Assembly: GCA_043798985.1 (NCBI GenBank)
Contig: JAZDOE010000008.1
Coordinates: 2,332-66,331 of the forward strand
DNA from: Candidatus Falkowbacteria bacterium
GTDB taxonomy: Bacteria; Patescibacteriota; Patescibacteriia; UBA11705; JACRDX01
Reading direction: 5' to 3'
Length of the DNA: 64,000 nt
In this document: positions 12,257-63,874 of the stretch, one piece after another
How positions within the stretch are numbered: the first letter of the stretch is position 1
How the letters are laid out: every line of letters begins with the position of its first letter
The notes under the pieces: model-generated
What the model was told of the DNA's origin: nothing
Databases searched by the model: none
What the model saw: the letters and a program-made list of their open reading frames with translations, nothing else
Program-made: the position numbers and the translations under genes

Positions 12257-12508
12257 TCAGGTTGATTGCGATGGCACGATTAAACCGACCAGCCAGTTTA
12301 AAAATCCTCCGATCAGGCCTGTCATTGTCAAAACTCCCATCAAACAAACAACAATGCCAATAAGCTTATAAAGCATACGGCTGCTGCCAAACCATTTTTC
12401 GCCCCACATTGAGTAACCAATGAATTCCTGAATCCATTGCGTTCTCCAAACAAAAACAAATCCCACGCCAGCGATAATTAGTCCCAGAAAAAATTGTCCG
12501 ATTGTCAT
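12257..12508 (-). CDS. Small hypothetical membrane protein with two TM helices.
   Basis: 83-aa hydrophobic ORF in operon context. Confidence 0.35.
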   Translation of the reverse strand: MTIGQFFLGLIIAGVGFVFVWRTQWIQEFIGYSMWGEKWFGSSRMLYKLIGIVVCLMGVLTMTGLIGGFLNWLVGLIVPSQST

Positions 12509-12530
12509 ATATTATTTAAATTTTGTAATA

Positions 12531-12574
12531 TTCGCAGATTCGTAACATTCGTAAGATTTGTAGCTTCGTAGCCA
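12531..12574. repeat. Copy C1 of a 44-nt dispersed repeat (TTCGCAGATTCGTAACATTCGTAAGATTTGTAGCTTCGTAGCCA), in an intergenic position.
   Basis: About 39 of 44 positions match a second copy at 55840..55883, which lies in frame inside the U32 peptidase CDS. Confidence 0.6.
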
Positions 12575-12609
12575 TGTTATTATACCATTTCTTTCGACAC
12601 AATAAAAAA

Positions 12610-12692
12610 TGGGCGAGGAGAGATTTGAACTCTCATGACCTTGCGGTCGCTACCACCTCAAGGTAGTGCGTATGCCGTTTCGCCACTCGCCC
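12610..12692 (-). tRNA. tRNA-Leu (anticodon GAG), long variable arm; no CCA encoded.
   Basis: Cloverleaf reconstructed by hand: acceptor GGGCGAG/CTCGCCC, anticodon stem CTACC/GGTAG, loop TTGAGGT, T-arm GAGAGTTCAAATCTCTC. Confidence 0.8.
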
Positions 12693-12724
12693 AATTCACC
12701 CCGCCAAAGGCGGGGCTACAATTT

Positions 12725-14110: not shown

Positions 14111-15847
14111 CTACATCATTTGTACTTCCTTTATATTTAATAATCGCAAACCTTTTGTCAATACGTCTTTAACGTTGTTGGATAAAAATAATCGCGCAGC
14201 CGCCAGCTCTGGGTTTTCGCCAATGACACGGCATTTTTGATAAAAATTGTTAAACAATTGTGACAAATCCAACAAATATTTGCACAAACCGCTTGGGTCT
14301 AACTCTATTTCGGCCTTTTTAACCGCGTCGTTAAACATTCCAATTTTCAAAGCCAATTCGCGCTCAATATTCTCAACCAGCAAATCCAATTTGCAATTCT
14401 TCTGCTTTAATTTAGCGGCAGATGCCTTTTCAAAAAGAGAGTTTATGCGCGCGATTGTATAAAGCACGTATGGGCCAGTATCGCCATCAAACGCAGTCGC
14501 CTTATCAATGTCAAAAACAATCACACTGTTATTTTCATATTTTAAAATCCAAAACTTTATTGCAGCCAACGCGAGTTTCGTTGAAACATCTTCAACTTGC
14601 CGCGTTGACCAATCTACATGCCGCGCGTTTGTTTCTGCTTTTGCTTTTTCCAAAACAGCGTTAAACAACGAATCAAATGAAACAACATTACCCTTTCGCG
14701 ACGCCATGGCGCCCTCTGGCAAAGTGACAAAATCATAGCTAACGTGCGCTTTTTCCTTTTTATCATAGCCTAGCAAGTCCAGCAACTTGAAAATTTGTTT
14801 TAAATACAATGACTGGCGGACATCAACTACGTAAATTGACTTGTCAATTTTATATTTTTCAAACTTTTTAATTCCCAATGGCAAATCTTTGGCGCCATAA
14901 AGAACATTACCGTCAGATTTTATCAAAACCAAAACATCCAAACCATATTCCTGCAAATCAGCTATTAACGCGCCTTCGCTCATTTTTACTTCTTTAATTT
15001 TTCCTTCCTTAACAATACGTGCTAACAATTTTCGCCCCTCTTTTTCCTCTGCGCTTTCCCAAAACCATTCGTCAAATTTATTGCCCAATATTCCATAAAT
15101 CTTATGAAAATCATCCATGCTCCATTTTTTTGTTTTTTTCCAAAGCGCTGTTGCTTTGCGCTCGCCAGCTTCCAAACGCTTTTGTACTTCAGCAATCTCA
15201 ACCATCAACTCTGGTTTTTCCGCCAACAAGTTAACAGCTTCAGAATAAACTTTTCCCAAATACTCCGCCTTATTTTTACCTTTTTCAATAATCAGCTTAG
15301 GATTATTTTTCTCCAAATACCATATACATTTTGCAACATGAACGCCTGTGTCGCCAATATAATTCGCAACAATCACCTTCTTTCCGGCTTCGCGCAAAAT
15401 ATTAACCACTGCCGCGCCAAGGCAGGCATTTCGCAAATGGCCGACATGAAATTCTTTGTGCGTGTTCGGCTGCGAATATTCAACCATAACCCTTTTACCA
15501 CCCGTAGAGACGAGATATATCTCGTCTCTACATTGCCTTGAACACAAAATTTGTTCAAGCAGCCATTTTCGCTTGAAAGTAAAATTCACATACGGCCCCA
15601 CAATCTTCAATTCCTCAATAAAATCTCCGCGCTTGTCATTTCGACCTCGCTTTAGCGAGGGAGAAATCCCTCGTAAAATTTCCGCCCCAACATCCATCGG
15701 AGACTTCTTCATCTTCTTCGCCAAATTAAAACACGGCAAAGCCAAATCACCCATTTTAATATCCGGCGGTGCGACAAAATCGCTTGCGCTGACATCAAAT
15801 CCCGCTTGTTGCAACAATTTTGCCAACTGTTCTTTAATTTTCTGCAT
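14111..15847 (-). CDS. argS: Arginyl-tRNA synthetase; the sequence carries two in-frame repeat insertions.
   Basis: HIGH-type motif EFHVGHLRNACLG and the DALR anticodon-binding C-terminus. Probable ATG start at 15847 (MQKIKEQ); the track ORF begins at a TTG at 15856. Confidence 0.9.
   Translation of the reverse strand: MQKIKEQLAKLLQQAGFDVSASDFVAPPDIKMGDLALPCFNLAKKMKKSPMDVGAEILRGISPSLKRGRNDKRGDFIEELKIVGPYVNFTFKRKWLLEQILCSRQCRDEIYLVSTGGKRVMVEYSQPNTHKEFHVGHLRNACLGAAVVNILREAGKKVIVANYIGDTGVHVAKCIWYLEKNNPKLIIEKGKNKAEYLGKVYSEAVNLLAEKPELMVEIAEVQKRLEAGERKATALWKKTKKWSMDDFHKIYGILGNKFDEWFWESAEEKEGRKLLARIVKEGKIKEVKMSEGALIADLQEYGLDVLVLIKSDGNVLYGAKDLPLGIKKFEKYKIDKSIYVVDVRQSLYLKQIFKLLDLLGYDKKEKAHVSYDFVTLPEGAMASRKGNVVSFDSLFNAVLEKAKAETNARHVDWSTRQVEDVSTKLALAAIKFWILKYENNSVIVFDIDKATAFDGDTGPYVLYTIARINSLFEKASAAKLKQKNCKLDLLVENIERELALKIGMFNDAVKKAEIELDPSGLCKYLLDLSQLFNNFYQKCRVIGENPELAAARLFLSNNVKDVLTKGLRLLNIKEVQMM
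15504..15531. repeat. Family B palindrome, copy B1 (GTAGAGACGAGATATATCTCGTCTCTAC), inside the argS CDS.
   Basis: Perfect 28-nt palindrome translated in frame as CRDEIYLVST. Related copies lie at 54489..54516 and 56058..56083. Confidence 0.65.
15645..15673. repeat. GC-rich double-hairpin segment (CCTCGCTTTAGCGAGG / CGAGGGAGAAATCCCTCG) inside the argS N-terminal region; probably another in-frame insertion.
   Basis: It encodes RGISPSLKRGRNDKRGD between the conserved ArgRS N-terminal blocks. Its GC content is far above the surrounding sequence. Confidence 0.35.
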
Positions 15848-15848
15848 A

Positions 15849-17171
15849 TTAAACAACTTTAACGAAAAACCGCTTGCCCTTTTGGATCACACTGCCCCTT
15901 TTAACAACAATTTCCAATGTTTCAATAACCTTGCCGTCAATTTTGACGCCTCCTTGTTCAATCGCGCGGCGCGCTTCTCCTTTTGATTTAACAAGCCCGG
16001 CCACCAGCAACGCGTCAGTAATATTCATACCTGCGACTTTCGCGTCAGGCATTTCATCTGGTGTTTCTTTTTTTGAAAAAGTTTTAATAAAATTTTCGCG
16101 CCCTGACACTGCTTCTTTTTCTCCATGATAAATTTTTACAATGGCTTCTGCCAATTCCAGTTTCAAATCACGCGGATTTTCCCCTCCTTTTAGTCTCTTT
16201 TCAACCGCGCCAACGCTTTCGGCCGGTTCTAACTTGCAAAGTTCAAACCCCGGAACAATCATTCCGTCAGTCCAGCTCATAACTTTTCCAAACATTTGTT
16301 CAGCCATATCATCTAACGTAATCATATTGCCCTCGCTCTTTCCCATTTTCTTTCCTGTTGTGTCAGTCAGCAATTTGTTCGCCAAAACGAATTTTTCTTT
16401 TCCTTTCATTGATTTCATCAAATCGCGGCCAACCAACATGTTGAACGTCTGATCATTCCCACCGATTTCACCATCAACATCCATCGCCACCGAATCATAC
16501 CCCTGCATCAACGGATATAAAAACTCATGCAACCCAATCGGGGATGGGCTAATTAAATCTTCAATCTTATCACAAGCCACGGCATGCAAACATTTTTTAC
16601 AAACACCACCGACTGGCGGAACAGTTGTTTGCCCCAACAAAATCAACTCCCCGCAATGTTCGCAAATCTTTTTCCAATGCATTCTTTTTCTGAACATATC
16701 ACGAGAAAGCATTTGTTGCACAGTAAAATGGCTCGCCAGATCAATAATTTCTTTAAACGTCAATTTATCCAACCAGTCGCCGTTGAATTTGATTTCAGCC
16801 GGATTTGCGCCGTCAAATTTAATCAAAGCGCTTGCTTGCTTTTTATAATTCTCACAATTTTTCAAAACCTGTTCGCGCGTCAATGGTTTACGCATTGCCA
16901 ATTTGTCAGTCGGGTCGCCAATCATTGCCGTAAAACTGCCAATCAACATTATTATTTTGTGACCCAACTCTTGAAACTGGCGCAACTTCATTAAACTAAT
17001 CGCATGACCAAGATGCAAACTCGGGCCAGTTGGATCAATGCCCAAATATATACGCAACTGTTTTCCTGATTTTAATTTTTCTTCTAAAAATTCTCGCGCC
17101 GGAAAAATATTTTCCACGCCACGAGTCAAAAGTTCCTCTATCTTTTTTGCATCTACGTTTATTTTGGGCAT
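15849..17171 (-). CDS. tyrS: Tyrosyl-tRNA synthetase carrying a zinc-ribbon insertion of about 45 aa.
   Basis: GIDPTGPSLHLGHAISL (HIGH motif), KMGKS motif and the C-terminal S4 domain are all present. The insertion HWKKICEHCGELILLGQTTVPPVGGVCKKCLHAVAC has a CxxC-x18-CxxC pattern. Confidence 0.9.
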   Translation of the reverse strand: MPKINVDAKKIEELLTRGVENIFPAREFLEEKLKSGKQLRIYLGIDPTGPSLHLGHAISLMKLRQFQELGHKIIMLIGSFTAMIGDPTDKLAMRKPLTREQVLKNCENYKKQASALIKFDGANPAEIKFNGDWLDKLTFKEIIDLASHFTVQQMLSRDMFRKRMHWKKICEHCGELILLGQTTVPPVGGVCKKCLHAVACDKIEDLISPSPIGLHEFLYPLMQGYDSVAMDVDGEIGGNDQTFNMLVGRDLMKSMKGKEKFVLANKLLTDTTGKKMGKSEGNMITLDDMAEQMFGKVMSWTDGMIVPGFELCKLEPAESVGAVEKRLKGGENPRDLKLELAEAIVKIYHGEKEAVSGRENFIKTFSKKETPDEMPDAKVAGMNITDALLVAGLVKSKGEARRAIEQGGVKIDGKVIETLEIVVKRGSVIQKGKRFFVKVV

Positions 17172-17177
17172 AAATTT

Positions 17178-20100
17178 TTACATTAAACCTTTTGTTTGTT
17201 CAAGAATCTTTTTTAATTTTTCTTTTGCCTCTGCCAATCTTGTTTTCTCCGCGGCGACAACTTTTTCCGGCGCGTTTTTTATAAATTCAACATTGCTTAA
17301 CTTTCTTTCCAGCCCGCCAATATAATTTTCCAAATTATCTTTTTCCTTTTCCAACCGTTGCTTTTCTTTTCCAGAATCAATCAATCCAGCAAGCGGCATA
17401 TAAATTTCAATTTTTCCAATAATTGCACAGGCCGCTTGCTCTGGCTTTCTTGAAACAAAATTCAAATTCTCAACTTTAGCTAACGCCTTTATTATGTTTG
17501 CCGCGTCTGCCAACGCCTTGCCACCAATAATTTCAATGTCGATTTTTTTTGCCAAATCAACTTTATGTTCAGCTCGCAAATTTCTTATTTTCGTCACAAC
17601 TTCAACAATCGCGGAAAATTCTTTATCAACTTTTTCGTTAATCAACTTCTTATCAACTTTTGGCCATTCCGCAACTATTAAATTCTCGCGAATGCCCCCG
17701 CTTGTCATCCTGAGGCTCTCGAAGGATGACCATATTGCCTCCGTCACAAACGGCGCGAATGGATGCCACAACTTCAACAAATCTTTCAATATACTCAACA
17801 AAATCGCGTCTTTGTTTTTTTCAACTTTGCTGATTTCCAAATACCAATCAGCAAAATCATTCCATGTAAATTCGCGCAACAATTCGCCTGCCGCAGAAAA
17901 ATTATATTCATCTAAAAACTTCGTGACATCTCGTTTTAAACAATTCAACCGCGACAAAATCCATCGATCTGCTAACGTCGCGCCTGTCATTTCGAACCCG
18001 CCCACGGCGGGTGAGAAATCCCTTGTAGTCGTCAGCACGAACCTAGAAATATTCCACAATTTATTAACCAAATTTCTGCATCCCTCAACTTTTTCTTCAA
18101 AAAATCTAATGTCATTGCCCGGCGTTGTGCCAATTAACAATGCCAACCGCGACGCATCTGCTCCATATTTTTCAATCATGTCCAACGGATCAATTCCATT
18201 GCCGCGCGACTTGCTCATCTTTTTGCCATTTTTATCAAGCACCATTCCGTGCAAATAAACTTTTTCAAAAGGAATTTCGCCAAGTGCAAAAAAACTCATC
18301 ATCACCATTCGCGACACCCACAAAGTAATAATTTCATAACCAGTTTCCAACATTTGCGTCGGATGAAACCTTGCAAGATCGCCGGTTTTATTCAGCGTTG
18401 AAAAAGTCCACATTCCGGACGAAAACCAAGTGTCCAAAGAATCTTCATCTTGCTTCAAATTGAACGAACCGCACGAGCAAACTGCCGGCGGTAATTTTAT
18501 ACGCACATCTTTCGCGTTGTCCGGATATGTTAATTTATAAATCTCCAAATCGCTCAAATTTGTATTAAATCCTTTTACCACACGGGCAACATCGCCATGC
18601 GCCACCGCCAAAATTTTCTTGCCTGGATATTTTTTCGCGACTTCATCAAAAAAGGAAAAAACTCGTGATTTTAAACTATCAAATGACTCAATGCCTCGCG
18701 GAGAGTCATGATGCCACGCTTCAAAATCTTTTTTGCGAAACGCGCCCAATTCTTTGTCAGATTTTCCCTCAAACTCACCCATACCAACCTCGCGCAACCG
18801 TTTATCAAAAATTATTTTCTTGATTCCCAATTTGCCTGCCACGATTTTGGCGGTTTCCTGCGCTCTCTTAAAATCCGATGAAAAAATAATGTCTATTTTT
18901 TCTGCAAGCAACTCTTCCGCGACGGAAACAGATTGCGCTTTTCCTTTTTCTGTCAAACCATTTTCTTGATTTTTTATGTCAGAATTTAATTTGTCTTCAA
19001 CGTTGCTGCGCGATTCGCCATGCCGCAAAACGATAATTTCCGTATTTAATTTTTCAGTCACTTTAACTTCATTGCATTTTTCGCAATACCAAACAGGAAT
19101 TCTATGACCAAACCAAATCTGTCGGCTGATGCACCAATCCTGCATATTTTTCATCCAATCCAAATATCTCTTTTCAAATCTCTCCGGAATAAACTCAATC
19201 GCATGTTTTTCAGCGGCTTCAATCGCTTTTTCTTTCAAAGATTTGTTGCCTAATTTTTTAATCTTTTTATCAACCGCGACAAACCATTGTTTGCTTGGCA
19301 ATGGCTCAATCGCTGTGCCACAACGATAACAAATGGATAAATTATTATCTATTTCTTCTTCTTTTTCCAACAAATTCTGCGCGCGCAACCTTTCAACAAC
19401 CATTTGGCGCGCGCCCAAAACATCTTTTCCAGAATATTCTCCAAAATTTTCTTTAATTTTTCCATTCTCATCAATTACTTTTACAACTTCCAAATTGTTC
19501 GCCCGCGCCATTTGCCAATCAACAATGGAATGCGCGGGCGTTACGCCGAGCGCTCCGGTGCCGAAATTCATATCAACCTGCCAATCACCAATGATTTTAA
19601 TTTTAAGCGGCACACCGACAAAATCAACGCTAAATTCTTTGCCAATATATTTTTTATAGCGCTCGTCTTTCGGATTTACCGCGACAGCAGTGTCGCCAAG
19701 TTTTGTTTCCGGCCGAGTCGTGGCAATTGTAATCGGAAAATTTTTATTGTATTTAAAAGTATAAAGTTTTGCTTTTTGCTCCTGATATTCCACTTCGTCA
19801 TCGGCCAAAGTTGACTGGCATCGCGGGCACCAATTTACCACTCGTTCGCCACGATAAATCACACCTGAATCATACATATCCGCGAACATTTTTGCCACAG
19901 CCTTTATCCGCGGCTCATCTAATGTAAAAGCCTGCCGCGACCAATCCAAAGACGCGCCCATTTTCTTTATTTGATGCAAAATGGTTGTTTGCGTTTCTCT
20001 CAAAAACTCCCAAACTTTTTCCAAAAATTTTTCGCGCCCCAAATCATGCCGCGTCTTTTTTTCTTCTTTCCATAATTGCTTTTCCACAACATTTTGCGTG

Positions 20101-20369
20101 GCAATTGCCGCGTGATCAGTTCCGGGTAACCACAGCGCCCTAAATCCATTCATCCGTTTGTATCGAATTATCAAATCTTCAATCGCCAAAGTCAACGCTT
20201 GGCCCATGTGTAATTTTGCGGTAATATTCGGCGGCGGCAAAATAATTGTGTATGGTTTTGCCTTTTTCGGCAAATTCAAATTGTCTGGATTAAAAAATCC
20301 ACTTTCTTCCCAATCCTTGTAAATTTTATCTTCAAAATCTTTGGGAATGTACGCCTTTGGAATCTCCAT
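17178..20369 (-). CDS. valS: Valyl-tRNA synthetase with an inserted histidine-phosphatase (PGAM-like) domain of about 200 aa.
   Basis: PNITAKLHMGQALT (HIGH), the editing domain and the KMSKS region are present. Between the two zinc-knuckle Cys pairs (WYCEKC ... CSCG) lies a full His-phosphatase fold with VLRHGESRSN and AVAHGDVARV. Confidence 0.9.
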   Translation of the reverse strand: MEIPKAYIPKDFEDKIYKDWEESGFFNPDNLNLPKKAKPYTIILPPPNITAKLHMGQALTLAIEDLIIRYKRMNGFRALWLPGTDHAAIATQNVVEKQLWKEEKKTRHDLGREKFLEKVWEFLRETQTTILHQIKKMGASLDWSRQAFTLDEPRIKAVAKMFADMYDSGVIYRGERVVNWCPRCQSTLADDEVEYQEQKAKLYTFKYNKNFPITIATTRPETKLGDTAVAVNPKDERYKKYIGKEFSVDFVGVPLKIKIIGDWQVDMNFGTGALGVTPAHSIVDWQMARANNLEVVKVIDENGKIKENFGEYSGKDVLGARQMVVERLRAQNLLEKEEEIDNNLSICYRCGTAIEPLPSKQWFVAVDKKIKKLGNKSLKEKAIEAAEKHAIEFIPERFEKRYLDWMKNMQDWCISRQIWFGHRIPVWYCEKCNEVKVTEKLNTEIIVLRHGESRSNVEDKLNSDIKNQENGLTEKGKAQSVSVAEELLAEKIDIIFSSDFKRAQETAKIVAGKLGIKKIIFDKRLREVGMGEFEGKSDKELGAFRKKDFEAWHHDSPRGIESFDSLKSRVFSFFDEVAKKYPGKKILAVAHGDVARVVKGFNTNLSDLEIYKLTYPDNAKDVRIKLPPAVCSCGSFNLKQDEDSLDTWFSSGMWTFSTLNKTGDLARFHPTQMLETGYEIITLWVSRMVMMSFFALGEIPFEKVYLHGMVLDKNGKKMSKSRGNGIDPLDMIEKYGADASRLALLIGTTPGNDIRFFEEKVEGCRNLVNKLWNISRFVLTTTRDFSPAVGGFEMTGATLADRWILSRLNCLKRDVTKFLDEYNFSAAGELLREFTWNDFADWYLEISKVEKNKDAILLSILKDLLKLWHPFAPFVTEAIWSSFESLRMTSGGIRENLIVAEWPKVDKKLINEKVDKEFSAIVEVVTKIRNLRAEHKVDLAKKIDIEIIGGKALADAANIIKALAKVENLNFVSRKPEQAACAIIGKIEIYMPLAGLIDSGKEKQRLEKEKDNLENYIGGLERKLSNVEFIKNAPEKVVAAEKTRLAEAKEKLKKILEQTKGLM
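17704..17730. repeat. Family A palindromic element, copy A1 (GTCATCCTGAGGCTCTCGAAGGATGAC), inside the valS CDS.
   Basis: Hairpin with stem GTCATCC/GGATGAC, translated in frame as ESLRMTSG. Related copies lie at 52292, 55329 and 56273. Confidence 0.65.
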
Positions 20370-22045: not shown

Positions 22046-22162
22046 ATCTTTTGCGCTCCCCGCCCAAAGCCCGAAGGGCATTGTGGCGGGCCCGCCAGAC
22101 TGCGAAGCTGTCGGCGGGTAACCAGCCCCAAGGGGGCCCCTTCGGGGCTGAGCTATGCGACC
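22046..22162. mobile_element. GC-rich structured element followed by a 16-nt duplicate of the tRNA-Val(CAC) 5' end. It forms the terminal portion of a tRNA-linked insertion.
   Basis: CCCCGCCCAAAGCCCGAAGGGCATTGTGGCGGGCCCGCC...CCCCAAGGGGGCCCCTTCGGGGC, then GCTGAGCTATGCGACC, the reverse complement of tRNA nucleotides 1-16. The motif is homologous to 44692..44897 and 46596..46672. Confidence 0.45.
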
Positions 22163-22782: not shown

Positions 22783-22960
22783 TTGGTGGGCACAGATGGA
22801 CTTGAACCATCGACCCCCGCCTTACCCGCCTGCCAGAGTCTGTGGGCGCAACTGGACTCGAACCAGTGACCCCCGCCTTATAAGGGCGATGCTCTAACCA
22901 GCTGAGCTATGCGCCCACAGACGGCGGGCAGGTAAGGGCGGTGCGGCTATGTGCCCATTA
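22783..22960 (-). other. Composite tRNA locus: a complete tRNA is embedded between the two halves of a tRNA-like sequence. The outer 5' acceptor strand GGGCACA and the outer 3' half with T-arm and CCA are complementary, and the flanks are imperfect inverted repeats.
   Basis: The reverse complement of 22783..22846 is ...GGCGGGGGTCGATGGTTCAAGTCCATCTGTGCCCACCA, a perfect T-arm plus acceptor plus CCA. The reverse complement of 22948..22954 is GGGCACA. Flanks CCGCCTTACCCGCCTGCC and GGCGGGCAGGTAAGGGCGG are near inverted repeats. Confidence 0.3.
22843..22916 (-). tRNA. tRNA with anticodon TAT, Ile-type and unusual in bacteria. It is the inner gene of the composite locus.
   Basis: Reverse complement GGGCGCATAGCTCAGCTGGTTAGAGCATCGCCCTTATAAGGCGGGGGTCACTGGTTCGAGTCCAGTTGCGCCCA. 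Anticodon stem TCGCC/GGCGG, loop CTTATAA. Confidence 0.55.
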
Positions 22961-40837: not shown

Positions 40838-40965
40838 CAATCGTAAAATAATTTTGAATTTCCAATTTCGAATTTTGATTGAATTCCGAAATCTGAATTT
40901 TGAAACATTCAAACATTCATACATTCAACGTTGAATCAAAATTCAAAATTCTAATTTCAAAATTT
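40838..40965. repeat. AT-rich intergenic repeat cluster (gaattt/aaattc, ttcgaa-type short repeats) upstream of rpmB.
   Basis: Related in style to the repeats at 48291..48410, 51283..51400 and 52141..52200. Confidence 0.4.
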
Positions 40966-44619: not shown

Positions 44620-44691
44620 TCCTCTCGGAAGGAATCGAACCTTCATCGCAGGTTCCGGAAACCTGTGTTCTATCCATTGAACTACGAGAGG
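44620..44691 (-). tRNA. tRNA-Arg (anticodon CCG).
   Basis: Reverse complement CCTCTCGTAGTTCAATGGATAGAACACAGGTTTCCGGAACCTGCGATGAAGGTTCGATTCCTTCCGAGAGGA. Confidence 0.75.
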
Positions 44692-44897
44692 GTAAATTGT
44701 GTTCCCCGCCCAAAGCCCAAATGGCATTGTGGCGGGCCCGCCTGCTTGCCGCCCTTGGCGGCTGGCGGCGGGTATCCATTGAACTACGAGAGGGTAAATT
44801 GTGTTCCCCGCCCAAAGCCCAAAGGGCATTGTGGCGGGCCCGCCTGCTTGCCGCCCTTGGCGGCTGGCGGCGGGTATCCATTGAACTACGGGAGGGG
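44692..44897. repeat. Two tandem 102-bp direct repeats, each made of a GC-rich structured element plus a 22-nt copy of the tRNA-Arg 5' end (acceptor and D-arm).
   Basis: TATCCATTGAACTACGAGAGGG occurs at about 44671, 44773 and 44875. The GC segment shares CCCCGCCCAAAGCCC-AA-GGCATTGTGGCGGGCCCGCC with 22046..22085. The four overlapping ORFs in the track are artefacts of the repeat. Confidence 0.7.
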
Positions 44898-44902
44898 AAA
44901 AA

Positions 44903-46595: not shown

Positions 46596-46672
46596 CCCCG
46601 CCATCGGCGGGGCGAAGCGTGCGCGCTACCAACCCCAACGGGGCCCCTTCGGGGCCGCGCTAATCCCCGAAA
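46596..46672. repeat. Degenerate third copy of the tRNA-linked GC-rich element, upstream of tRNA-Pro(CGG).
   Basis: On the minus strand: CGGGGATTAGCGCGG (a degenerate tRNA-Pro 5' fragment) followed by CCCCGAAGGGGCCCCGTTGGGGTTGGTA. Compare GGTCGCATAGCTCAGC + CCCGAAGGGGCCCCCTTGGGGCTGGTTA at the tRNA-Val locus. Confidence 0.4.
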
Positions 46673-48265: not shown

Positions 48266-48290
48266 ACTTTTTAAAAACCCCAAACTCGAA

Positions 48291-48410
48291 ACACTAAATC
48301 CGAAACAAGCACGAAATTCGAATTTTCCAATGTTTGAAATATTCTGATTTCGTATTTTAAATTTGTTTAGGATTTCGGATTTCGTATTTATTTATTAATC
48401 CAAGTTTAAC
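48291..48410. repeat. Intergenic AT-rich repeat unit R1 (CGAAAC ... AAACAAGCACGAAATTCGAAT ... GATTTCGTATTT).
   Basis: Homologous to 51283..51400. The arms are inverted: CGAAACA... versus ...TGTTTCG-type. Confidence 0.55.
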
Positions 48411-51140: not shown

Positions 51141-51282
51141 GACAAAACCCCCATTGGGAAAGGTCAAAATCCAAAGCTCAAAATCCAGAAGACGTTGAGC
51201 AAGGATTCATATTGCCATCATAAAAAATCCTGCGCGAAAACAAAAAAAGAGGGCTGTTGATAATCAATACCCTCAATAAAAA

Positions 51283-51400
51283 ATTCGAAGCACGAAACAC
51301 GAAACCCTAAACAAGCACGAAGCACGAAATTCCAATGTTTCAATATTGGAACATTCTAATTTCTAATTTGTTTCGTATTTCGATATTCGGATTTCGAATT
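51283..51400. repeat. Intergenic AT-rich repeat unit R2.
   Basis: Shares AAACAAGCACGAAG...CGAAATTCCAATGTTTCAATATT...TTTCGTATTTCGATATTCGGATTTCGAATTT with R1. Confidence 0.55.
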
Positions 51401-52465
51401 TTAAAATATTTTCTGTAAGAACCTATATATTCCCAATTGAACCGGTTGGTAAATTTTTTCATAAGTCCCGACATATTCAACAATTTCCGCAGTCGGCGAA
51501 AATCCCATTTTGAACTTCGTGAATCCCGCCCAGTTTTCCAGTCTTCCGGTTGCATCTTGCGGCGCGACACCCCAAAAATCATAAAACCAAAATCCGTCAC
51601 GTTTCGCGTCTTTTATTGCCTGCCATTGCAACAAATATGGAGCCATGGCATTGCGAAAATCATGGTCAGACGCGCCAAATAAATATGTTGCCGTGTTATC
51701 CCAAAAAATCACAATATTTGCCGCGATAATTTTTCCTTCCAACTTTGCAACATACAATTTGACAAATGGAACTTTCAGAAGTTCCTTAAAATAATCTTGT
51801 CCGTAAAATTTTATTTTCTGTCGCGCTTCTGTTTTTTTCTCAAGTTCGTAAAATTCTTTAAACATTAAATTGTCCACCACAATTTCAACCCCGCGTTTTT
51901 TTGCCACGCCAATGTTGTATCTGGTTTTTTCGTGCATTTGTTTTAACAAATTTTCTTCGTCCCCGCGCAAATCCAACATTAACGTATGTCTCGGTAAAAT
52001 ATCTTTTTCGCATTTTACAAACCCCATTTCATCAAAAATCCCACACCAACTCTTATCTTCTGAAAACGGGTCAATCTGAAACGCCATCGCCCCTTCCTGC
52101 TTCGCAATCTTATCTATTTCCTGCATGATCATTTTTGTGATTTCGGATTTAGAATTTGTTTCGGATTTCGGATTTCGAATTTCGGACTTTATAACTGGAC
52201 CTCGTGGAGAGTAAAGAATGCTTCGTCCCAATTTCGCTTTTGATTCAAACAAAAACACGACAGCGCACCATTCTTTATCACTTTGAGCGCTGTCGCCCTG
52301 AGCTTGTCGAGGGGTCACCTCAACAATCAATCTCCAAATTTTTTCATTTTGCGTATTCAAAAAATCACCCCATTCCCATGATTGAGTAAATCCGCCGGTA
52401 TCATTTTCTTTCACAAAATCATTCCAGCGCTCTTTATCCTCAATTGTTGCGTAGCTAATCGTCAT
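51401..52465 (-). CDS. FemAB-family protein (peptidoglycan interpeptide-bridge aminoacyltransferase-like). It carries two in-frame repeat insertions.
   Basis: FemAB-type sequence SWEWGDFLNTQ...ILYSPRGP... The inserted segments encode KSEIRNPKSETNSKSEITK (the atttcgg repeat, 52141..52200) and PRQAQGDSAQ (family A, 52292..52318). Confidence 0.55.
   Translation of the reverse strand: MTISYATIEDKERWNDFVKENDTGGFTQSWEWGDFLNTQNEKIWRLIVEVTPRQAQGDSAQSDKEWCAVVFLFESKAKLGRSILYSPRGPVIKSEIRNPKSETNSKSEITKMIMQEIDKIAKQEGAMAFQIDPFSEDKSWCGIFDEMGFVKCEKDILPRHTLMLDLRGDEENLLKQMHEKTRYNIGVAKKRGVEIVVDNLMFKEFYELEKKTEARQKIKFYGQDYFKELLKVPFVKLYVAKLEGKIIAANIVIFWDNTATYLFGASDHDFRNAMAPYLLQWQAIKDAKRDGFWFYDFWGVAPQDATGRLENWAGFTKFKMGFSPTAEIVEYVGTYEKIYQPVQLGIYRFLQKIF
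52292..52318. repeat. Family A palindromic element, copy A2 (variant GTCGCCCTGAGCTTGTCGAGGGGTCAC), inside the FemAB-like CDS.
   Basis: Same architecture as 17704..17730, with compensatory stem changes. Confidence 0.5.
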
Positions 52466-52588: not shown

Positions 52589-53665
52589 CTACTTGCCCGC
52601 CTCTACCGAGGCGGGCGAGAGCGCGACCAACCCACCCGCGAAACTGCCACGAGCACCATCAAGACTCTGACTGCCATAGAAGTAAGCGTCATCACCATCG
52701 GCAAAGCAAAAGAGCGACCAGCCGCGCCACGCAAGCGCTGCCATGTCATAGCACGGCGTCTTGTTGTCCCGCAGCAGTTCTGCCGCGTACATACTCATTG
52801 CTGCCAGCGTATCCAATCCGCCTGCAAGCATGAACATTTCCGGCAAGGTTTCCATCTGCTCTCTGTCTGCATTGATGGAATATCCCTGCAGCGCGGTCGG
52901 GAAGTAAATCCCCACCACCGGCTCCTTACTTGCCGCTTCCAACACTCTCTCATGTCTGCTTCCCGCCCAGATTGTCACTTCTCCGGCAAGCTGCCCCGTG
53001 ATATTGTTGTGGAAGGGACGGTTGGGAAACGCCTTCGTGTATGCTCTTGCCACTGTTGGCACAAGCACCTTGTCCAGCTTTGCCCCGTAGTTTGCCGCCG
53101 TCACGCCAAGCCCTGCCGGAATGCAGAACGGGTACCATGCGCCTTTCAGCACATTCTTAACCGTTTCATCTGCTTCAATCTTCTGCACTAAAGCGTTGAT
53201 GCGCAGTGCGAACTCTTCGGCAGACACAAACTCCAACTTCTCGTCGACAAATGCTTCTTTCGCAAGCACCAATCTTTCGGCAAAGGACAACCGCTCTATC
53301 CGCGTCGGATAGTAACCGTAATTCGCGTCGCATACCGAGCTTCTCATTCCGGTCGGTGGGATTCTGCGGCCATTCTTGTCATAGACCAGCGTTGGCGTCG
53401 GCTCTATCACCATCTCGTTTGGCCCCATGAAAATCGCGTGCATTTCACCCGACAGCAAACAATCAACCACCGATTCCCCAAGCTTGTTCTCCAACAGCTC
53501 AAGATGCCCGAGCGTTCTCTGAGGATACTTGGCAGGATCTCCGGACCGCTTCATCTGCGTGAGCGTTGCCAGCACCGCATCTGCGCCACCGTGCAAAGCC
53601 ACGTAATCCACGATATCCGCGACCGTCAACTTCTTCCACCCGTCACAACTCATAGCATCCTCCAT
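52589..53665 (-). CDS. Conserved hypothetical protein, GC-rich, paralog 1 of a duplicated gene.
   Basis: 358 aa. The C-terminal 260 aa are about 85-90% identical to 54516..55466 (for example LEAASKEPVVGIYFPTALQGYSINADREQM, AAELLRDNKTPCYDMAALAWRGWSL). No family recognised. Confidence 0.5.
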   Translation of the reverse strand: MEDAMSCDGWKKLTVADIVDYVALHGGADAVLATLTQMKRSGDPAKYPQRTLGHLELLENKLGESVVDCLLSGEMHAIFMGPNEMVIEPTPTLVYDKNGRRIPPTGMRSSVCDANYGYYPTRIERLSFAERLVLAKEAFVDEKLEFVSAEEFALRINALVQKIEADETVKNVLKGAWYPFCIPAGLGVTAANYGAKLDKVLVPTVARAYTKAFPNRPFHNNITGQLAGEVTIWAGSRHERVLEAASKEPVVGIYFPTALQGYSINADREQMETLPEMFMLAGGLDTLAAMSMYAAELLRDNKTPCYDMAALAWRGWSLFCFADGDDAYFYGSQSLDGARGSFAGGLVALSPASVEAGK

Positions 53666-54401: not shown

Positions 54402-54488
54402 ACATACAAATAATACATCACAACCAATATTTTTTCAATCTTCTGAAATTAAAATAGGGAATGTTGTTTCAACATTCCCAAATTCTCC

Positions 54489-54516
54489 GTAGAGCCGAGA
54501 TATATCTCGGCTCTAC
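54489..54516. repeat. Family B palindrome, copy B2 (GTAGAGCCGAGATATATCTCGGCTCTAC), abutting the stop codon of paralog 2.
   Basis: Perfect palindrome; differs from B1 by a compensatory A/T to C/G change. Confidence 0.6.
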
Positions 54517-55466
54517 TACGCGAGGGCGACCAAACCGCCGGCGATATAGTCATAAGCACCCGCAAGACGCCGACCGTCACGGAAGAAGGCAGAAACATCA
54601 TAAGCATAGCAATCGAGCGACCAGCCGCGCCAAGCGAGCGCTGCCATGTCATAGCACGGCGTCTTGTTGTCGCGCAGCAGTTCTGCCGCGTACATACTCA
54701 TTGCGCACATGGTATCCAACCCACCTGCAAGCATGAACATTTCCGGCAAGGTTGCCATCTGCTCTCTGTCTGCATTGATGGAATATCCCTGCAGCGCGGT
54801 CGGGAAGTAAATCCCCACCACCGGCTCTTTGCTTGCCGCTTCCAGCACCCTCTCATGCCTGCTTCCCTGCCAAATCGTCACTTCTCCGGAAAGCTGACCG
54901 TTGAGATTGTTGTGGAAGGGACGATTGGGAAACGCCTTCGTGTATGCTCTTGCCACTGCCGACAAAAGCACCTTGTCCATCTTATCCCCGTAGTTTGCCG
55001 CCGTCACTCCGAGCCCTCCGGGGATGACGAACGGGTACCATGCGCCTTTCAGCACGTTCTTAATCGTTTCGTCCGCCTCAATCTTCATTACCAGCGCATT
55101 GATGCGCTCAAAAAACTGCTCAACGGACACGAACGTCAGCGACTTGTCATTGAACACCTCCTGCGCCAATTTCAGCTTCGCGCCAAACGGCAACTGCTCA
55201 AGTCGCGTCGGGCAGTAACCATAGTTCGCGTCGCACACCGAACTTTTCATCCCCTGCGGCGGGATTCTGCGCCCGTTCTTGTCATAGACCAGCGTCGGCG
55301 TCGGCTCTATCACCACCTCATGCGTCTTGTCACCCTGAGGCTCTCGAAGGGCGACCACTCTGACCGTCAGCTCGCCGTTCGCAATTTTGCGCGCAATTTC
55401 CGTGCCACCGAGACGATTCAACAATGCTTCGTCCTCATTGCGCATCCAGTCACCATACTTTCCCAT
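54516..55466 (-). CDS. Conserved hypothetical protein, GC-rich, paralog 2; its N-terminus contains a family A palindrome insertion.
   Basis: 316 aa; VVALREPQGDKTHEV is encoded by 55329..55355. Confidence 0.5.
   Translation of the reverse strand: MGKYGDWMRNEDEALLNRLGGTEIARKIANGELTVRVVALREPQGDKTHEVVIEPTPTLVYDKNGRRIPPQGMKSSVCDANYGYCPTRLEQLPFGAKLKLAQEVFNDKSLTFVSVEQFFERINALVMKIEADETIKNVLKGAWYPFVIPGGLGVTAANYGDKMDKVLLSAVARAYTKAFPNRPFHNNLNGQLSGEVTIWQGSRHERVLEAASKEPVVGIYFPTALQGYSINADREQMATLPEMFMLAGGLDTMCAMSMYAAELLRDNKTPCYDMAALAWRGWSLDCYAYDVSAFFRDGRRLAGAYDYIAGGLVALA
55329..55355. repeat. Family A palindromic element, copy A3 (GTCACCCTGAGGCTCTCGAAGGGCGAC).
   Basis: In-frame within paralog 2. Confidence 0.55.
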
Positions 55467-55624: not shown

Positions 55625-56893
55625 TTACACAATTTTCCTGCGCAACAATGTCATTTCCGGAACATTTTTATTTATTTCCAAATAAATTTCCTGCTTTTGC
55701 CCACCATGTGCTTCTTTTATCCGTTTCATATCTTTATCAAAAATCTTTGTAATTTTTTGTTTAAAAACTTTACCCACTGGTGGTACGAACTCAATCTCAT
55801 CACCCACAAAAATCTGATTATGCACCAAAACTTTAATTATTCGCAGATTAGTAACATTCGAATGATTCGTAGCTTCGTAGCCACCAACAACTTCGCCGCA
55901 AAACTCCCATTCGCACGTTTCATGGCTCGCGTCTGTTTTTTGCCCTTGCCACGCCGAAGCTCCGCGAAGGCGGGCGCATTTTTCCTTTCCAAATAAAAAT
56001 CCTGTTGTAAATCCGCGGTTCTGATATTTTTTTAATTCTTTAATATAATATTTATCCAGAGACGAGACATGCCTCGTCTCTACAAGAGAATCAATTGCCG
56101 CGCGATAAACTTTTGTCACGCCGGCAACATAATAAATACTTTTTGACCGGCCCTCAATTTTAAACGACGAAATGCCGGCTTTTGCCAAATCTCTCAAATA
56201 TTCAACCAAACACAAATCTTTTGAATTCATAATATAACTCCCGCTATCATCCTCTTCAATCAACAACACTCTGTCATGCTGAGGCTCTCGAAGCATCTTA
56301 TAACTCCATCTGCATGGCTGCGTGCAATCACCGAGATTTGCGCTTCGTTTTGTAAAAAACTGCGACAACAAACAACGGCCAGAATATGACATGCACATTG
56401 CGCCATGGACAAAACATTCCAGCTCAACTTTTGGCGCGGCTTTGTGGATTTTTTTAATTTCTTCCAGCGTGGTCTCGCGCGCCAAAATGACGCGCGAGAC
56501 ACCTTGCCGCGCCCAAAATTTCGCAGACTCTGAATTTATACAATTTGCTTGCGTTGAAAGATGGATATTCGCTTTTGGCCAGATCTTTTTTATTAAAACC
56601 AACACACCCGGATCAGAAACAACTAAAGCATCGGGTTTTACTGTCCGCAACCATTTAATATGTTCTGCCAATTTTGCGAAATGTTTTTCACGCGGAAAAA
56701 TGTTCAAAGTTATGTAGACTTTTTTATTGCGCGAGCGCGCGAAGTCAATTCCTTGATGCAATGTTTTTAAATTAAAATCATTCACTCGCGCGCGCAAAGA
56801 AAAATCAGGGATGCCGCAGTAAACCACGTCAGCCCCAAATTCAATCGCGTATTTTAATTTTTTCAAACTCCCTGCTGGTGAAATCAGCTCCAT
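55625..56893 (-). CDS. Peptidase U32 family protein (PrtC / RlhA-like). It carries at least four in-frame repeat insertions.
   Basis: MELISPAGSLKKLKYAIEFGADVVYCGIPDFSLRARVNDFNLKTLHQGIDFARSRNKKVYITLN is canonical U32. Insertions: C2 at 55840..55883 (TNHSNVTNLRIIK), D2 at 55949..55976 (ARLRGASAWQG), B3 at 56058..56083 (ETRHVSSL) and A4 at 56273..56297 (MLREPQHD). Confidence 0.7.
   Translation of the reverse strand: MELISPAGSLKKLKYAIEFGADVVYCGIPDFSLRARVNDFNLKTLHQGIDFARSRNKKVYITLNIFPREKHFAKLAEHIKWLRTVKPDALVVSDPGVLVLIKKIWPKANIHLSTQANCINSESAKFWARQGVSRVILARETTLEEIKKIHKAAPKVELECFVHGAMCMSYSGRCLLSQFFTKRSANLGDCTQPCRWSYKMLREPQHDRVLLIEEDDSGSYIMNSKDLCLVEYLRDLAKAGISSFKIEGRSKSIYYVAGVTKVYRAAIDSLVETRHVSSLDKYYIKELKKYQNRGFTTGFLFGKEKCARLRGASAWQGQKTDASHETCEWEFCGEVVGGYEATNHSNVTNLRIIKVLVHNQIFVGDEIEFVPPVGKVFKQKITKIFDKDMKRIKEAHGGQKQEIYLEINKNVPEMTLLRRKIV
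55840..55883. repeat. Copy C2 of the 44-nt repeat, in frame inside the U32 CDS.
   Basis: TTCGCAGATTAGTAACATTCGAATGATTCGTAGCTTCGTAGCCA; compare C1 at 12531..12574. Confidence 0.6.
55949..55976. repeat. Family D GC hairpin, copy D2 (CCACGCCGAAGCTCCGCGAAGGCGGGCG).
   Basis: Shares GCCGAAGC...CGAAGGC with 58059..58086 in ileS. Confidence 0.45.
56058..56083. repeat. Family B palindrome, copy B3 (AGAGACGAGACATGCCTCGTCTCTAC variant).
   Basis: Same arms as B1 with a different central loop (ACATGC versus ATATAT). Confidence 0.5.
56273..56297. repeat. Family A palindromic element, copy A4 (GTCATGCTGAGGCTCTCGAAGCATC).
   Basis: The central CTGAGGCTCTCGAAG is conserved; the stem is changed compensatorily (ATGC/GCAT). 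Confidence 0.5.
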
Positions 56894-56897
56894 ATTT

Positions 56898-57512
56898 TTA
56901 CGCGCTCCACCACGCCGCAATGCCAGCGAAAAATTCCCGTATTTTAAATTTCCACATTCCTGAATAATCGCTCAAATCAGACGCCACGCCAACCGCGTCA
57001 ACGCCCAGTTTATTGCAAACATACAACGCTCGTCCAAGATGCGCGCTTTGTGTCACCAAAATCGCGTCATTGATTTTAAAAACATTTTTCAAACGGTTGC
57101 ACGTGTCAAAAGTTGAAAGTCCAAGCGGATCCAAAATTAAATTATCGCTTTTCAACCCATGCGTGACAGCGAAATTCACCATTGCTTTTATCTCGTCGTG
57201 CGTCAAATCTGCGCTATCTCCGCTCATTAAAATTTTTTTGACCTTGCCTTCTTTATAAAGTTCCATTGCCATTAAAATTCTGTCTCTCAAAAAATCCCCG
57301 GGCCAATCTTTAAACTTTAAGCCGGCGCCGAACACAACTGCCACTTGCTTTTTCGGCGCCGAATCAAGCGTATAAATTTTATCAGCAATCTTGCGGTTTA
57401 TTAAAAAAAGAATTCCTGCAACAATCAACGCCAATAAAAAAATCAAAAAAATAAATCGTTTTGCCCATTTTTTCCACCTTTGCGGCCTGATTGTCTGTAT
57501 TATGGGATCCAC
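56898..57512 (-). CDS. SanA/YdcF (DUF218) family membrane protein.
   Basis: N-terminal TM helix, then KQVAVVFGAGL...ILMSGDSADLTHDEIKAMVNFAV... typical of DUF218. Confidence 0.65.
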   Translation of the reverse strand: MDPIIQTIRPQRWKKWAKRFIFLIFLLALIVAGILFLINRKIADKIYTLDSAPKKQVAVVFGAGLKFKDWPGDFLRDRILMAMELYKEGKVKKILMSGDSADLTHDEIKAMVNFAVTHGLKSDNLILDPLGLSTFDTCNRLKNVFKINDAILVTQSAHLGRALYVCNKLGVDAVGVASDLSDYSGMWKFKIREFFAGIAAWWSA

Positions 57513-62545: not shown

Positions 62546-63874
62546 TTAAAACAAAACGTTTTGTCTCGGCTTCATTTCTTTCACCTCATCTTCTGAAAAA
62601 ACTTTTACGACACCATACTCGCCATCATATCCGGGTTTAATTGCAACTTTTCCATCGCGCACTTTCAAAATCGCGCCGGCTATTACGTCATTTGAAATCC
62701 TTACAAGTTCTTCTTGATTCAAATCAAGCAAAATTTCAAACTCTGTTTTTTGTTCCAACATTTTTTCATACGAACCGCGCACGCGCTTGCTCGCCGTTCC
62801 TTGTTGCAAACATTCTGCAATTATTTCTTTCAGCGGAACCAAGCTGCGAAACGGCACAACATTTTCCGGTCTAAAACCAACCTCGCGATCAGCCAAATCT
62901 TGCACGCGATGATCAACGCCAAGCGTCAATTCTTTTTTACAGACAGGACAAATATTTTTCAATTTTGCGCTATCTTTTGGCGCGCAAGAAAATTTACATT
63001 TCATGTGGCCATCCCAATGATATTTTCCCTCTTCCGGAAAAAATTCAACGGTGTATGCCAGCGATAGTCGATCGACTGATTGTGAAACAGACTGACGTCG
63101 CGCAAGAGAGCTGTTTTTTATTGCTTCAATAATATCTTCATAATCAAAATTTCCGCCAGAGGCGGATCGACCTTGGGTCGAAAAAACATTCGCTTCCCGC
63201 CCCAAATTTTCCGGACTGTGCGCGTCAGAATTTGAAATCAACGCGATCTTATCCAATTTGGAAAGCCGCCAATTCATACTCGGATCTGATGACAATCCAG
63301 TCTCTATCGCATAAATATCTGGCGTTAATTCTTCAAAACATTCTTCCAAAGAATCATAGCCGGACTTTGAACCAAAAACCGCGAACCATGGTGTCCACGC
63401 GTGCGCCGGAACCAAAAACATACGGTCATCAACCTCCAAACAAATTTTTAAAACTTCTTTTGCCGACAATCCGATTATTGGCCTGCCGTCAGATTTCAAA
63501 TTGCATCCGCGTTTTAACAATTCAGCGTTAAATTTATCAACAGCAGCAAAGCTTGGCGCGAATAACAGCAAATGCAATCTCCGCGTTTTTTCTTTGTCTT
63601 TGTAAATGCAACTTATTTCGCTGGACAGCAGAAAGCTGGTAGCTTGTAGGCTGGTAGCTGGTAGGTCGGAATTAACTAATTTCAATAAACCGCTACCATC
63701 TTCAACCAATTTTTCTTTCAGCTCTTTCAAATATTGCGGGTGCGTAAAATCTCCGGTTGCCAAAATCTGGATCCCCTTTTTGCGCGCCCATAAATCCAAA
63801 TGTTCAACATCCATTTGTTTGGATGTGGCGCGCGAATATTTTGAATGTATATGCAAATCCGCGATTACACGCAT
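62546..63874 (-). CDS. PHP-domain nuclease with a zinc ribbon, endonuclease Q-like (COG1379).
   Basis: MRVIADLHIHSKYSRATS...LISNSDAHSPENLGREANVF (PHP metal ligands) plus C...C...CPVC. An in-frame ctggtag-type repeat lies at 63612..63650. Confidence 0.5.
   Translation of the reverse strand: MRVIADLHIHSKYSRATSKQMDVEHLDLWARKKGIQILATGDFTHPQYLKELKEKLVEDGSGLLKLVNSDLPATSLQATSFLLSSEISCIYKDKEKTRRLHLLLFAPSFAAVDKFNAELLKRGCNLKSDGRPIIGLSAKEVLKICLEVDDRMFLVPAHAWTPWFAVFGSKSGYDSLEECFEELTPDIYAIETGLSSDPSMNWRLSKLDKIALISNSDAHSPENLGREANVFSTQGRSASGGNFDYEDIIEAIKNSSLARRQSVSQSVDRLSLAYTVEFFPEEGKYHWDGHMKCKFSCAPKDSAKLKNICPVCKKELTLGVDHRVQDLADREVGFRPENVVPFRSLVPLKEIIAECLQQGTASKRVRGSYEKMLEQKTEFEILLDLNQEELVRISNDVIAGAILKVRDGKVAIKPGYDGEYGVVKVFSEDEVKEMKPRQNVLF

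Follow-up and report, generated by a model that had tools for sequence, protein, structure and literature searches.

The window analysed here (i.e., a 64,000-nt stretch of Candidatus Falkowbacteria bacterium, assembly GCA_043798985.1, contig JAZDOE010000008.1, positions 2,332 to 66,331 of the forward strand) contains a short AT-rich repeat in two copies. Copy 1 is located in the leader of a gene for a predicted membrane protein, and copy 2 lies in frame within the gene for a U32 family peptidase (Table 1). Nearly all the genes of the window are on the minus strand, and the 33 window proteins scanned with Pfam are housekeeping proteins, including DnaE, ArgRS, TyrRS, ValRS, SecY, EF-Tu, EF-G, ComEC, FemAB, and NDK; no transposase (including Y1/RAYT), reverse transcriptase or Nop-domain protein was found among them. 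An earlier reading made from the letters of the window alone (hereafter the sequence-only reading) had described a 44-nt repeat with one copy between a small membrane-protein gene and tRNA-Leu and another in frame within the U32 peptidase. Both sequences are found where that reading had placed them: copy 1 lies between the ATG at 12508 and tRNA-Leu(gag), and copy 2 is inside a gene whose product matches Pfam domains PF01136 and PF16325.

The 44-nt cores of copies 1 and 2 are identical at 40 of 44 positions (91%), which is slightly higher than the value of about 89% given before, and their BLAST match covers 46 nt (42/46 identical). The repeated unit is, however, longer than the 44 nt originally proposed. 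The repeat search (family D15) widened the match to 57 nt (48/57 identical), and the alignment gap that corresponds to copy 1 in related contigs is 56 nt long, which together indicate an actual unit of about 56-57 nt. In the 13-nt extension beyond the core, which is an AT-rich region, the copies are identical at 8 of 13 positions. The peptide attributed previously to the 44-mer (i.e., TNHSNVTNLRIIK) overlaps the one that the 44-mer itself gives, GYEATNHSNVTNLR(I), and enters the 57-nt extension. For the left 21-nt half, 0.01 matches with three or fewer mismatches are expected per dinucleotide-shuffled window and two were observed, both of which fit the degenerate pattern exactly. No third copy was found in the 64-kb window, even by profile search. 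The view of this repeat as a third repeat family inside open reading frames (ORFs) holds in that at least three repeat types have copies in ORFs; with two copies found, however, it is no more than a candidate family in this genome, and the alternative named in that reading, copies unique to two loci and explained by gene conversion, may apply. Misassembly at a collapsed repeat is excluded, as the DNA on either side of each copy is colinear with orthologous loci: the U32 protein is colinear with its orthologues on either side of copy 2, and copy 1 is flanked on both sides by DNA syntenic with L022 and L023, two contigs of another organism that were used as the syntenic reference for this locus.

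Read on the minus strand, the element consists of five degenerate direct units of 8-9 nt with the core TACGAA, and its consensus is TGGC[TACGAA]GC[TACRAA]TCW[TWCGAA]TGT[TACKAA]TCT[GCGAA]TA, followed by an AT-rich tail. The minus strand of copy 1 reads TGGC[TACGAA]GC[TACAAA]TCT[TACGAA]TGT[TACGAA]TCT[GCGAA]TATTACAAAATTT. Tandem Repeats Finder (TRF) detected a period of 9 with 3.8 copies at 12538-12570 in copy 1 and a period of 8 at 55866-55881 in copy 2, with units that match at only 76%. Copies 1 and 2 have the same order of non-identical sub-units, and independent slippage is therefore ruled out as an explanation of the pair. Chance or low-complexity convergence of the copies is also excluded by the shuffle controls, together with this common order of variant units. 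On the sense strand, the four mismatches between the cores are A/G, T/A, A/T, and G/T, of which two are not at a template A. The strand that carries the TACGAA units is the gene-sense strand at both loci. No stop codon occurs in any of the three frames of the sense strand of copy 1, while every antisense frame of both copies contains at least one stop codon, so that only the observed orientation could survive inside an ORF.

No significant fold was found for either copy on either strand (z of -0.69 to +0.50 versus shuffles), no inverted partner was present within about 150 nt of either copy, and no terminator was predicted at either copy. A hairpin, a repetitive extragenic palindromic (REP) sequence and a terminator were excluded on these three grounds. 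Terminal inverted repeats of the element were not seen either, and the borders of copy 1 showed no target-site duplication beyond AT-rich chance matches. In a scan of the window against Rfam 15 at the gathering score, only tRNAs were matched and nothing matched at the element. A promoter carried by the element was also considered and rejected, given that the sole match (9/12, + strand, 12502-12531) occurs at a frequency expected by chance.

At the copy 1 locus, the gene order DAGK, ferredoxin (Fer4), tRNA-Leu(gag), membrane protein and UPF0102 is kept in L022/L023, and the membrane-protein homologues P0122 and P0123 are 66-70% identical to the window protein. Alignment with these two contigs revealed one clean 56-nt gap that coincides with copy 1, and both relatives lack the repeat. 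The extended -10-like box TGGTATAAT corresponds to the invariant columns T54-T62 of the L022/L023 alignment. Its distance to the ATG is 14 nt in L022/L023 and 70 nt in the window, because copy 1 was inserted between the box and the ATG; the end of copy 1 is 9 nt from the ATG. The element would be transcribed within the lengthened leader of the membrane-protein gene.

Two conserved motifs of the U32_C domain, CGEV and KVxVHNQ, flank copy 2 in an alignment of 26 U32 proteins, and the copy is translated as G347-YEATNHSNVTNLRIIKV-(L). The NCBI model of the window protein (P0001, 422 aa) starts with MELISPAG at 56893, and its closest other U32 homologue is only about 60% identical. Both this protein and the 83-aa membrane protein match NCBI entries at 100% identity. 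Among the 87 homologues parsed, the loop at this position varies from 10 to 46 aa and is most commonly 13 aa long (16/87). The loop of the window protein has 23 aa (EVVGGYEATNHSNVTNLRIIKVL), compared to the 13-aa baseline represented by, for example, orthologue L026 (EVIGYEEGFLKVQ); the expectation of the sequence-only reading that U32 orthologues might lack the segment is thus borne out for many of them. Peptides typical of translated repeats are found in the U32 hairpin loop of many homologues. In the AlphaFold2 model (mean predicted local distance difference test score, pLDDT, of 78.8), residues 349-359 are predicted to form the tip of a beta-hairpin with strands 338-348 and 360-366, and pLDDT falls below 50 at residues 351-356. 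The window U32 protein retains every column that is invariant across the 26 homologues, and the gene is therefore intact and not a pseudogene. Copy 2 accordingly has the properties of an in-frame insertion at a permissive surface site, with an intact ORF, a position at the hairpin tip, and insert-free orthologues.

Table 1. Coordinates of the repeat copies, their host and neighbouring genes, and the U32 loop inserts of the P0010 genome (window positions unless a contig is given).
Feature	Coordinates	Strand	Remark
Copy 1 of repeat	12518..12574 (44-nt core 12531-12574)	-	57 nt, leader of membrane-protein gene
Copy 2 of repeat	55827..55883 (44-nt core 55840-55883)	-	57 nt, in frame within U32 peptidase
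Predicted membrane protein, 83 aa	12257..12508	-	Leader received copy 1; ATG at 12508
tRNA-Leu(gag)	12609..12693	-	Neighbour upstream of copy 1
Extended -10-like box TGGTATAAT	12579..12587	-	Conserved in relatives; putative promoter, function suggested by consensus only
U32 family peptidase gene	55625..56920	-	PF01136 + PF16325; hosts copy 2
Loop inserts and intergenic copies, P0010 genome	L010:8255-8338, 14471-14507, 16758-16780; L011:10622-10693, 1874-1904		

Relatives of the TACGAA units are found in other genomes, both in U32 loops and between genes. The U32 loop DNA of L001, L004, L005, and L027 contains TACGAA/ACGAAT units on the coding strand, and that of L007 contains only degenerate CGAA/TACTAA/TACGGA units. 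These units are read as TN, YE or LRI in the orthologous loops; as they are translated in different frames, it is the nucleotide motif that is shared and not the peptide. In nhmmer comparisons of the window U32 tract with the orthologous tracts, E-values were 0.07 for L005, 0.28 for L004, and 1.3 for L001, and the window tract is far closer to the two intergenic elements than to any of the orthologous U32 tracts. The second of these intergenic elements is a colinear relative of the whole element at L010:16168-16219 in the P0010 genome, which is 31/37 (84%) identical to copy 1 and has an alignment score of 42, versus 23.8 +/- 2.4 (maximum 30) for shuffled queries. It stops 5 nt short of the ATG of an NYN-domain gene, upstream of it and in the orientation opposite to that of the window case. 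The U32 protein of P0010 is 61% identical to that of the window, and its own loop lacks a TACGAA tract. The P0010 genome also contains an inverted pair of TACGAA-element units at L011:351-367 and 439-455.

A further candidate, the TACGAA tract of P0006 as a fresh gain relative to P0004, was dropped, since the loop difference travels with a diverged allele segment. The U32 genes of the groundwater relatives concerned (L008:10001-11206 and L004:2818-4101) are, by sliding identity, 99-100% identical up to about column 600 and 72-84% identical from there on. Such a pattern indicates either a mosaic produced by recombination or a chimeric assembly, and both variable loops lie in the diverged part; the loop difference of the P0004/P0006 pair is therefore no proof of insertion. 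Viral sequences scanned with two consensus patterns yielded 0 matches and 2 chance AT-rich matches, respectively.

Repeats of other kinds also occur inside genes. In the P0010 genome, each of two U32 loop inserts on L010/L011 has intergenic counterparts of 96-97% identity at a distance of a few kb (Table 1); the loop-2 insert is a perfect hairpin (GGTAGGGACAGAACAGTGTTCTGTCCCTACC) and the loop-1 insert is a heptamer array. In the window, palindrome D13 (GTAGAGACGAG-ATATAT-CTCGTCTCTAC) is present at 56054-56083, 15502-15531, and 54487-54516. It is in frame in the U32 gene (56054-56083, VETRHVSSL) and in that of ArgRS (ORF 14111-15856), and a further copy, which looks terminator-like, sits right at the stop of ORF 54516-55466. 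Hairpin D6 (GTCAYCCTGAGGCTCTCGAAGGRYGAC) occurs at 56270-56296, 17701-17732, 55326-55357, and 52289-52320, with copies within U32, ValRS (ORF 17178-20369) and ORF 54516-55466; in U32 it places REPQHD where EVKRPD is conserved and adds no length. A GC-rich 30-nt sequence at 55946-55975 (GCCCGCCTTCGCGGAGCTTCGGCGTGGCAA) encodes ARLRGASAWQ, a 10-aa U32 insert in the low-pLDDT segment 318-328. This insert is absent from all 25 of the 25 aligned homologues, and no second copy of its DNA was found in the window. Long imperfect hairpins built of 7-nt units, with a CGAAAYN arm and a GATTTCG arm, were noticed at 40850-40964, 48275-48394, 51280-51402, and 52135-52190. They are intergenic except for the one at 52135-52190, which is inside the FemAB ORF, and they have a TTCG core in common with the repeat studied here.

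The sequence-only reading had further linked the repeat to a tract inside the EndoQ-like gene. That tract (63612-63665) is a separate local heptamer array, (CTACCAG)n on the coding strand, for which TRF reported a period of 7 with 4.3 copies at 63634-63665, and only the string GTAGCTT-GTAG is common to it and the repeat. It encodes DLPATSLQATS in a PHP-domain protein, within a loop that varies among homologues; P0149, one of these, has DLPAT at the same position. As for whether EndoQ orthologues lack the segment, the tract does make the loop about 6 aa longer than in the shortest homologues, but what is added is small and belongs to this separate heptamer.

Several other features of the window are recorded here for completeness. 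A 300-nt direct repeat with 86% identity (52616-52915 and 54519-54818) connects the 3' parts of ORFs 52589-53665 and 54516-55466, which flank ruvA, are probably paralogues, and both lack a Pfam match. A 102-nt unit is present 2.3 times at 44671-44900, adjoining tRNA-Arg, and contains a GC-rich element that recurs near the tRNA cluster at 22 kb (22051-22103), while a second GC-rich element at 22114-22155 recurs at 46621-46662, adjoining tRNA-Pro. Ahead of tRNA-Ile(TAT) (22842-22916), the 3' half of this tRNA is partly duplicated over 39 nt (22786-22824, 85% identity). The ValRS encoded at 17178-20369 has a histidine-phosphatase domain (PF00300) inserted in its class I synthetase catalytic domain, and the same kind of PF00300 insertion is found in the IleRS of L001 and L005.

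We interpret the element as a dispersed repeat of low copy number, AT-rich and non-palindromic, with a length of about 56 nt. On this view, leaders and permissive loops are the only places that tolerate it, template switching or ectopic conversion is the probable means by which it was copied, and the encoded loop is a passenger; we give this interpretation a probability of roughly one half. Under it, copying between loci would proceed without a dedicated enzyme encoded by the element. The short repeated units may have nucleated the copying step, either as template switching or as ectopic gene conversion, and the TACGAA-unit tracts already present in the U32 loops of relatives could supply the microhomology. 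Selection would then purge insertions everywhere but in leaders and permissive surface loops and, inside ORFs, those in the stop-bearing orientation, and the encoded loop ATNHSNVTNLR would be a passenger that plays no role in the enzyme.

Several observations weigh against this interpretation. Only two copies were demonstrated in this genome, and signatures of insertion, such as defined termini or a target duplication, were not observed. Residues that insert-free orthologues also possess stand at both ends of the U32 copy (G-Y-E on one side and a hydrophobic residue/I-K-V on the other), so that copying may have gone in either direction. No other TACGAA clusters were found in a total of about 60 kb of DNA flanking the TACGAA-bearing orthologues, a result that better fits a tract native to U32. 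Searches of larger collections were likewise of no help to it: the scan of genome contigs with GAATGTTACNAATCTGCGAA returned 3 unrelated matches from a collection that does not include the source genome, and that of metagenome contigs with GGCTACGAAGCTACNAATC returned 7 unrelated high-GC matches, mostly a TetR-like GYEATN coding motif, from a collection from which the source genome is also absent. An all-frame peptide search with both copies gave 26 word-sharing candidates, none of them with E<=10, and this search did not return the U32 protein itself either. Finally, the copying mechanism is something that we infer.

The nearest competitor of the dispersed-repeat interpretation holds that the tract is native to U32 and kept there by slippage (concerted unit evolution), and that a 46-57-nt piece including the GYE and I-I-K-V codons was copied once to the leader by template switching, gene conversion or fragment capture, in which case no family exists. 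We consider this rather unlikely, although much of the above is consistent with it: TACGAA-unit tracts are found in the same loop of at least five U32 orthologues (L001, L004, L005, L027 and, in degenerate form, L007) and nowhere else in their roughly 60 kb of flanks; the left end of the U32 copy encodes G-Y-E and its right end I-I-K-V, as in the insert-free L026 (GYEEG...FLKV); the syntenic relatives have no leader copy; only two copies were found anywhere (i.e., in the window and in collections that lack the source genome); and all three sense frames of copy 1 are open, which a piece of coding origin might show. What speaks against such an origin is that the colinear relative in the P0010 genome, which includes the TAATATTCGCAG end, is intergenic and the U32 loop of that genome lacks a TACGAA tract, that the window tract resembles the intergenic elements far more than the orthologous tracts in the nhmmer comparisons, and that the AT-rich 13-nt extension, which should then be native, is only 8/13 identical. 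Conservation of the element also bears on a different proposal, namely that the UACGAA/TACGAA array is a functional cis-element that serves a multimeric regulator as a platform for binding to RNA or DNA, both in the leader and in the U32 gene or its mRNA. Given U32 proteins of only about 61% identity, the 84% conservation of the element between the genomes concerned calls for constraint, mobility or transfer. Both intergenic members (copy 1 and the L010 element) reach to 5-9 nt from a start codon and lie downstream of a likely promoter, the U32 loops share a DNA motif and not a peptide, and a precedent exists in the TAACTGA direct repeats located a few nt from start codons, which were proposed to be sites at which a post-transcriptional regulator acts (PMC4679880). 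A regulatory array is nevertheless improbable, given that L010 and the window have it in opposite orientations with respect to the gene downstream, that the syntenic relatives manage without it, that its unit spacing and sequence are irregular, that it has no stable or conserved RNA structure and no Rfam family, and that no candidate binding protein was identified.

[quoted passage not shown] It is very improbable for an element of only about 56 nt and very low copy number that has no terminal inverted repeats, palindrome or significant fold and no visible target-site duplication, and with no transposase or RAYT among the 33 window proteins scanned. Hardly credible are the remaining candidates, i.e., the template and variable repeats of a diversity-generating retroelement (DGR), an intragenic guide of a tandem interspaced guide RNA (TIGR) system, a match to a CRISPR-like spacer, or a chance low-complexity match. 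A near-identical pair with one copy in a variable protein region might suggest a DGR or TIGR system, and genomes of the candidate phyla radiation (CPR) are rich in DGRs and some contain in-frame intragenic tigRNAs (bioRxiv 10.64898/2026.09.09.750476). In the present case, template adenines do not account for two of the four mismatches, the repeat of 44-57 nt lies in a loop of a cytoplasmic enzyme, and no reverse transcriptase was present among the scanned proteins; neither strand contains box C (RUGAUGA) or box D (CUGA), no stem-loop is formed, and no Nop-domain protein was among the scanned proteins. Membership in a DGR or TIGR-Tas system is thereby effectively refuted, and a chance match is excluded by the shuffle controls.

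Taken alone, a two-copy repeat is a modest finding; that intergenic repeats have colonised U32 loops time and again across Patescibacteria is the stronger lead. We tentatively suggest, while regarding it as doubtful, that an active and sequence-tolerant process in Patescibacteria writes short intergenic repeats into the permissive loops of housekeeping proteins, that the U32 C-domain hairpin is a recurrent sink for them, and that the 84% conservation would then point to an undescribed mobilising or binding factor. If such a process operates, the repeats that it writes would include hairpin terminator-like elements, heptamer arrays and the TACGAA array; the repeat families filling a given loop would differ from one genome to another, and each would have near-identical copies between genes; and other housekeeping proteins may be colonised likewise. 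If the finding on the repeat holds, selfish DNA in coding genes, which is known mainly from RPEs, would extend to the CPR and to a non-palindromic element of direct units. Translated repeat DNA in the loops of U32, ArgRS and ValRS inflates apparent protein divergence and makes low-complexity 'domains', and it can mislead alignment, structure prediction and assembly.

Comparison with known systems places the element among several types of repeats. Like RPEs and other intragenic MITE-derived repeats, which are known in frame from housekeeping genes unrelated to each other, it is short, occurs both between genes and in frame in a housekeeping gene, and is translated at a position compatible with the fold (PMC10969869). 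RPEs are, however, palindromes of about 100-150 bp with tens of copies, whereas the element has about 56 nt, no fold and no inverted ends, and is made of direct 8-9-nt units, with two copies plus one relative in another genome documented. REP sequences and bacterial interspersed mosaic elements (BIMEs) are GC-rich extragenic palindromes of 20-40 nt associated with an IS200/IS605-like RAYT; the element, in contrast, is AT-rich and non-palindromic, and no Y1 transposase that could be a REP/BIME partner was found among the 33 scanned proteins. With coding tracts generated by slippage, such as variable-number tandem repeats (VNTRs), it shares a TRF-detected periodicity, a hypervariable loop and in-frame lengths. 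It differs from them in that the same ordered variant units occur at a second locus 43 kb away and in another genome, and slippage acts locally and cannot place the same ordered variant units at a distant locus. The in-frame tigRNA arrays of TIGR-Tas systems offer another parallel, as they too are repeat-like elements in frame in a disordered region of a CPR protein (bioRxiv 10.64898/2026.09.09.750476), but these arrays are within the tas gene and have box C/D and stem-loops, while the element lacks both and its host gene encodes a U32 peptidase.

Direct repeats of the heptamer TAACTGA have been described in Beggiatoaceae, Cyanobacteria and Bacteroidetes, where they lie a few nt upstream of start codons and sometimes in ORFs (PMC4679880). 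Like these and the cyanobacterial short tandemly repeated repetitive (STRR) sequences, the element forms an array of direct repeats just upstream of a start codon (at 9 and 5 nt, in two cases), and as with the TAACTGA repeats (PMC4679880) coding sequence tolerates only the stop-free orientation and there is no evident mechanism of mobilisation. TAACTGA and STRR repeats are, however, perfect tandem heptamers in up to hundreds of sets, whereas the element has degenerate units of 8-9 nt and a very low copy number, and its array was copied whole as a fixed block with ordered variants. The element belongs to no Rfam family, DGR or TIGR system, and it is repeat DNA translated inside a housekeeping gene, a phenomenon that is already known.

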